From the NCBI RefSeq assembly GCF_003334355.1, contig NZ_QOWP01000002.1: a stretch of DNA of 64,000 nt. The stretch is one strand, 5' to 3'. The notes below the pieces were generated by a model. The model was given only the letters and a program-made list of their open reading frames with translations, was not told the origin of the DNA and made no database searches. This DNA comes from Escherichia coli. GTDB taxonomy: Bacteria; Pseudomonadota; Gammaproteobacteria; Enterobacterales; Enterobacteriaceae. The translations under genes were made by a program, and so were the position numbers. Positions 12,990 to 14,120 of this stretch are shown in pieces (within the stretch, counting starts at the first letter, position 1; the number at the start of each line of letters is the position of its first letter).

Positions 12990-14120
12990 TTAGAACTGGT
13001 AAACCAGACCCAGAGCTACGATGTTATCAGTGTTGATGCCAGCGTCACGAGTGAACTGGTTGTCGTCCAGCAGGTTGATTTTGTAGTCAACGTAGGTGGA
13101 CATGTTTTTGTTGAAGTAGTAGGTCGCACCAACATCAACATATTTCAGGATATCTTCGTCGTCGTAGTTACGACTATTGATGACACCCAGGTTTTTACCT
13201 TTAGACTGCAGGTAAGCCAGGGACGGACGCAGACCAAAGTCGAACTGGTACTGAGCAACAGCTTCGAAGTTCTGTGCTTTGTTCGCCCAACCCAGGGAAC
13301 CTACGCGAGTTGCGTTGTAGGTCTGGGTGTACTGAGCAGCCAGGTAGATGTTGTTAGCGTCGTATTTCAGACCACCAGTGTAGGTTTCAGCACGGTCGCC
13401 AGTACCGATGTAGTTACGAACTACACCATTGCTGGTGTAGCTACCATTTTGATCATCAGTACGTTTGGAGCTGGAAACTGCAGCACCGATACCGAAGCCT
13501 TCGTAATCATAAGTGATAGATCCGCCGACACCGTCGCCATTCTGACGCAGAGCACCACGACCATTGTTGGTTATGCCTTCGCCGCTTACGCTACCGTTTT
13601 TGCCCTGGTACTGAACAGCAAAGTTCAGACCGTCAACCAGACCGAAGAAGTCGGTGTTACGGTAGGTCGCGAAGCCGTTACCACGCTGCTGCATGAAGTT
13701 GTCAGAACCGTAGGTGTCGCCACCGAATTCTGGCAGTACGTCGGTCCAGGAAGTTACGTCGTAAACAACGCCGTAGTTACGACCGTAGTCGAAAGAACCC
13801 ACATCCTGGAATTTCAGACCTGCGAATGCCACACGGGTCCAGGAGTTTTCTTTGTTGTCTTCAGAGGTATTGCCCTGGATCTGATATTCCCACTGGCCGT
13901 AACCGGTCAGCTGGTCAGTAACCTGAGTTTCGCCTTTGAAACCAAGACGTACATAGGTCTGGTCGCCGTCTTCTGACTTGTTGTCAGAGAAATAGTGCAG
14001 GCCGTCTACTTTACCGTACAGATCTAATTTGTTGCCGTCTTTGTTGTAAACTTCAGCAGCGTTTGCTGCGCCTGCTACCAGCAGAGCTGGGACCAGGAGG
14101 GACAGTACTTTAACTTTCAT
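12990..14120 (-). CDS. ompC: Outer membrane porin OmpC
   Basis: 376-aa ORF; signal peptide [21 protein letters not shown], porin beta-barrel sequence ending in the C-terminal F (..LGLVYQF). Confidence 0.95.

Follow-up and report, generated by a model that had tools for sequence, protein, structure and literature searches.

We found that the porin gene at positions 12990 to 14120 of the window (the whole 64,000-nt stretch of Escherichia coli DNA that was analyzed) is the chromosomal ompC orthologue, and that it very probably represents, in a phylogroup-A-like E. coli, one of many naturally circulating mosaic ompC alleles. The explanation that we favor would combine a constant scaffold with a variable surface. 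The 16-strand barrel, the L3 eyelet, the L2 glutamate, the signal peptide, the promoter and micF, all of them K-12-like, would yield a normal and normally regulated osmoporin, and the five outward loops L1, L2, L4, L5 and L7 would be alternative sequence cassettes that may be shuffled across the species by homologous recombination and presumably persist because phages, contact-dependent inhibition (CDI) toxins and antibodies favor diversity. Compared with that of K-12, the surface would have lost the GFTS bulge of L4 and gained an 8-residue hairpin extension in L5 and a 4-residue extension in L7, a change that would most likely remove the T4-type docking surface and bring L7 near to what a PP01-type gp38 needs. 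Docking of phages, toxins and antibodies would thus probably be altered without a change in the pore.

The chromosomal ompC locus and its regulation

The locus is laid out as follows, with coordinates in the window.

12990..14120, minus strand: ompC coding sequence from the open reading frame list, with an ATG start and 376 aa that include a 21-aa signal peptide and end in VYQF
12952..12971, minus strand: intrinsic terminator hairpin of ompC, AAAGGGCCTGCGGGCCCTTT followed by a T run, 3′ of the stop codon
14121..14453, minus strand: 5′-UTR and promoter of ompC (ompC-micF intergenic region), essentially identical to K-12
14454..14547, plus strand: micF small RNA (Rfam RF00033, 116.8 bits versus a gathering score of 79), divergent from ompC

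The open reading frame scored 750.6 bits with the NCBIfam model of porin OmpC (NF007841, cutoff of 484), whereas the OmpF and PhoE models gave 477 and 453 bits, both below their respective cutoffs of 583 and 599; PF00267 (Porin_1) is on record for the protein cluster of the encoded OmpC. The gene order ada-apbE(ftp)-ompC-micF-rcsD is that of K-12, and the presence of micF, the expected neighbor, confirmed the chromosomal ompC locus. Related porin genes do exist in E. coli, and megablast with the ompC query typically hit two places per genome, as might be expected if the gene were a paralogous or phage-borne porin (OmpN, NmpC/Lc or OmpS-like) or an assembly artifact. This reading carries next to no probability, and we excluded it on the basis of the exact synteny with apbE, micF and rcsD, the model scores, and an independent draft assembly (GCA_012531255.1), in which contig DABAWU010000002.1 is 100% identical to the window over positions 9990-17120 (7.1 kb). 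An insertion sequence disrupting the vicinity of ompC was rejected as well, as the coding sequence is intact and the ompC-rcsD spacing is 739 bp both in the window and in NC_010468.

Across the 5′ end of the gene and the region upstream of it, the window did not differ from K-12 at any position between 14000 and 14399 and differed at a single one between 14400 and 14499. The upstream region, which presumably contains the OmpR sites, is thus essentially identical to that of K-12, and regulation is therefore expected to be unchanged. Residues 1-21, the Sec signal peptide, are also identical to K-12, and the C terminus VYQF ends in the aromatic residue (Phe) that serves as the BAM assembly signal.

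Differences from K-12 OmpC and their position in the predicted structure

The original prediction held that this ompC allele is longer than that of K-12, that its changes are concentrated in external loops while the barrel strands and the C terminus are conserved, and that an alignment with K-12 OmpC and mapping onto the porin structure would decide the matter. As the reference we used ompC of K-12 MG1655 (NC_000913, positions 2311646-2312749, 1104 nt, 367 aa; locus region 2308000-2317000). Both lengths were as predicted, 376 aa in the window and 367 aa in K-12. In the global protein alignment, 344 of the 363 aligned residues were identical, leaving 19 substitutions, and 17 columns were gapped in four indels: one residue gained in L2 (D88), four lost in L4 (K-12 GFTS, precursor residues 181-184), eight gained in L5 (YTSNGVVR, residues 228-235) and four gained in L7 (VINS, residues 313-316). 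Their net effect of +9 accounts for the difference in length. Residues 92-176 (including L3), 241-312 and 319-376 are identical to K-12. Both loop peptides that had been singled out as divergent are present in the open reading frame, at residues 219-247 and 309-327, and the changes in L5 and L7 were thereby predicted correctly; the loss of four residues from L4 had been missed, as had the differences in L1 and L2.

To place these differences, we predicted the structure with AlphaFold2 from an alignment of 109 close OmpC representatives (84-96% identity) and diverse 50%-cluster representatives. The model reached a pLDDT of 90.1 and a pTM of 0.86 and showed 16 barrel strands plus an N-terminal strand and a helix in L3. 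Foldseek superposed it on the K-12 OmpC crystal structure 2J1N with a target-normalized TM score of 0.97 and an rmsd of 1.6 Å, and TM scores ranged from 0.96 to 0.98 across 2J1N, 2XE1 and 9WCB. The loops, whose boundaries with the strands were set by DSSP on the predicted model and not on crystal coordinates, are as follows.

13956..13985, minus strand: L1, residues 46-55; residues 49-50 are SE (DV in K-12), with V57M just beyond, at the top of beta2
13845..13874, minus strand: L2, residues 83-92; NTSEDNKEN versus K-12 NSAE-NENN, one residue longer and with 4 substitutions
13686..13772, minus strand: L3, the constriction (eyelet) loop, residues 117-145; identical to K-12
13533..13604, minus strand: L4, residues 173-196; without K-12 GFTS (4 residues shorter) and with 4 substitutions; like class c6 of Beck 2016
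13572..13574, minus strand: codon 183 within L4; ATA (Ile) where ATCC 8739 has ATG (Met), the changed base being window position 13572
13395..13463, minus strand: L5, residues 220-242; 8 additional residues (YTSNGVVR) and 5 substitutions; class b7 of Beck 2016
Residues 269-280: L6; unchanged versus K-12
13158..13193, minus strand: L7, residues 310-321; 4 additional residues giving LGVINSRNY, with Asn for Gly at 318; Beck 2016 class f
Residues 350-366: L8; unchanged versus K-12

On this model, the extracellular loops L1, L2, L4, L5 and L7 account for 16 of the 19 substitutions and for every one of the four indels. The concentration in loops versus the rest of the protein is significant (one-sided Fisher test, p = 1.5e-5), and the chance of all four indels falling in loops is about 0.017; a further Fisher test, restricted to the five loops that vary, was made post hoc. 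The sequences thus differ, and they do so where the original prediction had placed the differences; its claim of a conserved barrel and C terminus was likewise borne out by the alignment and the model. No protein difference from K-12 was detected by alignment and mapping in L3, L6, L8, the periplasmic turns or the signal peptide, and outside the loops only three residues are substituted: beta2 carries V57M at its outer end, and beta9 carries the conservative changes A213G and V215I, both on one face. Furthermore, the changed sites match the entropy peaks among the 109 OmpC cluster representatives, 12 of which share the L1 type SEDGDQTYV. Within L5, a beta-hairpin is predicted at residues 227-230/233-236, with a model confidence of only about 75-78 pLDDT at the 8-residue insertion and of only 68-80 across L4 and L5; the long b-type L5 is absent from the solved OmpC structures in the PDB.

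The distribution of the changes also bears on the possibility that the allele reflects an adaptation of the pore to limit permeability or confer antibiotic resistance, comparable to the L3 insertions of OmpK36 or the clinical OmpC20-33 series. Such porin variants exist and are among the nearest PDB matches of the protein (2xe1-2xe5, 6rck). However, L3 and all of residues 92-176 are the same as in K-12, the periplasmic turns are unchanged, the strand changes are the three conservative ones mentioned above, with A213G and V215I on a side of beta9 that probably faces outward, and the allele is also found in the nonclinical strains ATCC 8739 and E. coli C. A resistance-type change of L3 was therefore rejected, and pore adaptation in general is extremely improbable.

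The glutamate at the tip of L2 (Glu66 in mature numbering), which latches onto the neighboring subunit (PMC5056734), is kept in the window OmpC as Glu87. From this residue, the identical L3 and the identical upstream region, the protein is predicted to form a trimeric, cation-selective channel under EnvZ/OmpR osmoregulation.

Probable mosaic origin and distribution of the allele

At the DNA level, the gene differs from K-12 by 27 synonymous codons, which cluster beside the replacements in codons 48-63 and 156-225; one of them is a three-base switch between the serine codons AGC and TCT, and only two fall within the last 140 codons. In the flanking genes, divergence from K-12 is about 0-1%. The clustering of silent differences with amino acid changes, together with K-12-like flanks, indicates recombinational mosaicism. 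Variation concentrated in loops, clustered silent differences and conserved flanks are signs of a mosaic gene with hypervariable loops. In addition, the loop types are freely combined among the 109 OmpC representatives, and mosaic, recombination-driven evolution has been published for E. coli ompC (bioRxiv 10.1101/2021.09.21.461324).

The same loop differences could have arisen within the lineage, by point mutations and small indels under recent positive selection and with no import of cassettes. Positive selection on ompC has been reported in literature cited in the same preprint, and one substitution, Met183Ile, does appear to be specific to the lineage. Nevertheless, every difference from K-12 other than the Met183Ile base is common to ATCC 8739 and hundreds of other genomes, the synonymous changes, including the three-nucleotide serine switch, cluster with the replacements, and the same cassettes occur in other combinations in other alleles and in distantly related phylogroups (O145:H28, enterotoxigenic E. 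coli [ETEC] and E. coli C). We therefore regard stepwise change within the lineage as highly improbable and mosaicism as the preferred reading.

The extent of the presumed import was examined by a three-way SNP comparison with K-12 and ATCC 8739. Between about 9.4 and 14.7 kb (positions ~9400-14700, alkB-ada-apbE-ompC-micF), the SNPs of the window agree with ATCC 8739, and between about 16 and 18 kb (positions ~16000-18000, rcsD-rcsB) they agree with K-12, which implies a putative recombination junction between ~14.7 and 16 kb. This switch and the occurrence of the L5 cassette in E. coli C, O145:H28 and ETEC lend indirect support to a possible incongruence between loop cassettes and core genome. 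Given the switch, the ompC allele probably came within a segment that spans 5 kb or more. Divergence extends somewhat beyond ompC itself, since the 5′ half of apbE/ftp (positions 12200-12700) carries about 17 substitutions versus K-12, nearly all of them common to ATCC 8739.

Some further differences were observed on the rcsD side. The micF-rcsD intergenic region (positions 14500-14700) contains a 2-nt indel and about 6 SNPs versus K-12, again common to ATCC 8739. In rcsD, a stretch of 25 nt (positions 15500-15524, codons 214-222) contains five synonymous differences, all at third codon positions, that are private versus both K-12 and ATCC 8739. The gene is otherwise nearly identical outside this patch, which looks like a very short import, possibly by gene conversion. 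A nonsynonymous difference was found at position 16990, where residue 711 of RcsD is His in the window and Arg in K-12.

The occurrence of the allele was assessed by a megablast search of 5,426 complete E. coli genomes. An ompC gene was present in all 5,426, with an identity to the window gene of at least 99% in 298, 95-99% in 855 and 90-95% in 3,582. None of the 5,426 complete genomes matched the DNA of the whole gene exactly, and the best matches, including ATCC 8739, were one nucleotide apart. A 75-nt probe for the L5 insertion was found in 426 of the 5,426 genomes, among them E. coli C, O145:H28 and ETEC strains. The length of 376 aa is frequent among the OmpC representatives, which range from 360 to 382 aa. 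The loops had been cataloged before: Beck 2016 (PMC5056734), a catalog of 2,707 OmpC sequences, lists more than 220 OmpC proteins with 33 variants of L4, 30 of L5 and 13 of L7, and according to S2 Table of that work the window L5 is class b7 and the window L7 class f. The window L4, class c6 with Ile for Met, is missing from that list of 33 L4 variants, and neither WP_000865601 nor '8739', nor a CdiA-EC536 receptor status for the c6/b7/f combination, was found in the accessible text and supplement. Collectively, these data revealed a common, already cataloged type of ompC allele, which the original prediction had not recognized and next to which K-12 is one variant of more than 220, and its biology is already known.

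The unusual feature is Met183Ile. A 61-nt probe centered on the ATA codon had no exact match in the 5,426 complete E. coli genomes, and the exact Ile183 protein is on record (OWD73390.1, RCQ27351.1 and others) from a handful of draft contigs. Likewise, among complete RefSeq E. coli genomes none matches the window fully over positions 9990-17120, and the best 20-kb match reached 99.6%. Position 183 varies among Met, Val, Ile and Gln in the L4 loop classes. Met183Ile appears to be a lineage-specific change atop the common ATCC 8739-type allele.

Predicted receptor consequences and comparison with known OmpC proteins

The original prediction regarded OmpC loops as targets of phages, colicins and immune selection and expected the allele to alter receptor specificity. 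Published work on the same motifs, with phages T4 and PP01, CdiA-EC536 and an O157 antibody, makes altered specificity plausible. Attachment of T4 uses L1, L4 and L5 of OmpC (Suga 2021, as cited in bioRxiv 10.1101/2021.09.21.461324); it is lost upon mutation of the Phe in L4, and OmpC of O157 cannot be used by T4 (PMC5221442). The window L4 is devoid of the GFTS segment that bears this Phe, and L1 and L5 are altered. On these grounds, the window OmpC is probably not a protein receptor for T4.

The gp38 of phage PP01 depends on GVIN being inserted in L7, a feature absent from K-12, and K-12 OmpC with GFTS deleted and GVIN inserted into L7 is a full PP01 receptor, the sequence of L5 being less critical; deletion of the Gly that follows GVIN in L7 abolishes PP01 infection (PMC12892980). 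The window OmpC is naturally devoid of GFTS and has GVIN in L7, followed by Ser in place of Gly, and its L5, which is 8 residues longer, borders the L5-L7 cleft. Judged by these motifs, the window L7 is most likely close to the one needed by a PP01-type gp38, and the longer neighboring L5 may interfere with its use.

Other ligands also read these loops. CdiA-EC536 distinguishes OmpC alleles via L4 and L5 (PMC5056734), and the O157-specific monoclonal antibody 2G12 recognizes LGVING in L7 (PMC8426304), at which position the window protein reads LGVINS. The expectation that colicins would be affected fared less well. ColE9 passes through the lumen and eyelet of the porin, with OmpF as its preferred route (PMC8561637), and recognition of the variable loops by colicins was not found in the literature retrieved, which describes lumen threading. 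As colicins thread the lumen and the eyelet is unchanged, these loops provide no basis for an altered colicin sensitivity.

We also considered that Met183Ile is a recent escape or adaptation mutation in the tip region of L4, selected by a phage or CDI system that reads this loop, and, separately, that the b-type L5 hairpin is a docking surface for uncharacterized phages. Both ideas are unlikely, but if the former were true, nature would have supplied, with the Met183Ile clone, a single-residue probe of the OmpC-receptor interface. With the allele viewed as one of the circulating mosaics, its loop classes (L4 c6-like with Ile183, L5 b7 and L7 f) may help to predict phage host range and susceptibility to CDI, and they advise caution against assuming the receptor behavior of K-12, for example OmpC-dependent adsorption of T4. 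Their value is limited to typing, as the polymorphism of the OmpC loops, its mosaic origin and its effects on phages, CDI and antibodies are already documented.

Compared with known OmpC proteins, the window allele shares with K-12 OmpC (P06996; PDB 2J1N) the locus, the signal peptide, the barrel, the L3 eyelet and, presumably, the regulation. The K-12 protein differs in being 9 residues shorter, in having GFTS in L4 and in lacking YTSNGVVR in L5, VINS in L7 and the additional D in L2; it is of the type that T4 uses as a receptor, and PP01 does not use it. The closest solved structure, 9wcb (720 bits), is that of OmpC from O157:H7 EDL933, determined in complex with a variant of a lambda-like gpJ central tail fiber. 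The EDL933 protein, which is the receptor of phage PP01 and the target of antibody 2G12, resembles the window protein in its short type of L4 and in an L7 extended by 4 residues (GVIN), one residue of L7 setting the window protein apart from the O157 motif (GVINS versus GVING). It differs in its short L5 (SPL, class a6), in L4 (MTNNGRE versus ITNNGRG in the window) and in a K-12-like L2. The modular combination of L4, L5 and L7 classes described by Beck 2016 agrees with the window allele. Closest of these known proteins is OmpC of ATCC 8739 (Crooks; WP_000865601.1), which has the same length of 376 aa, the same L1, L2, L5 and L7 and the same locus, and whose gene matches that of the window at 1130 of 1131 nt (99.9%), codon 183 being ATG (Met) in ATCC 8739 and ATA (Ile) in the window.
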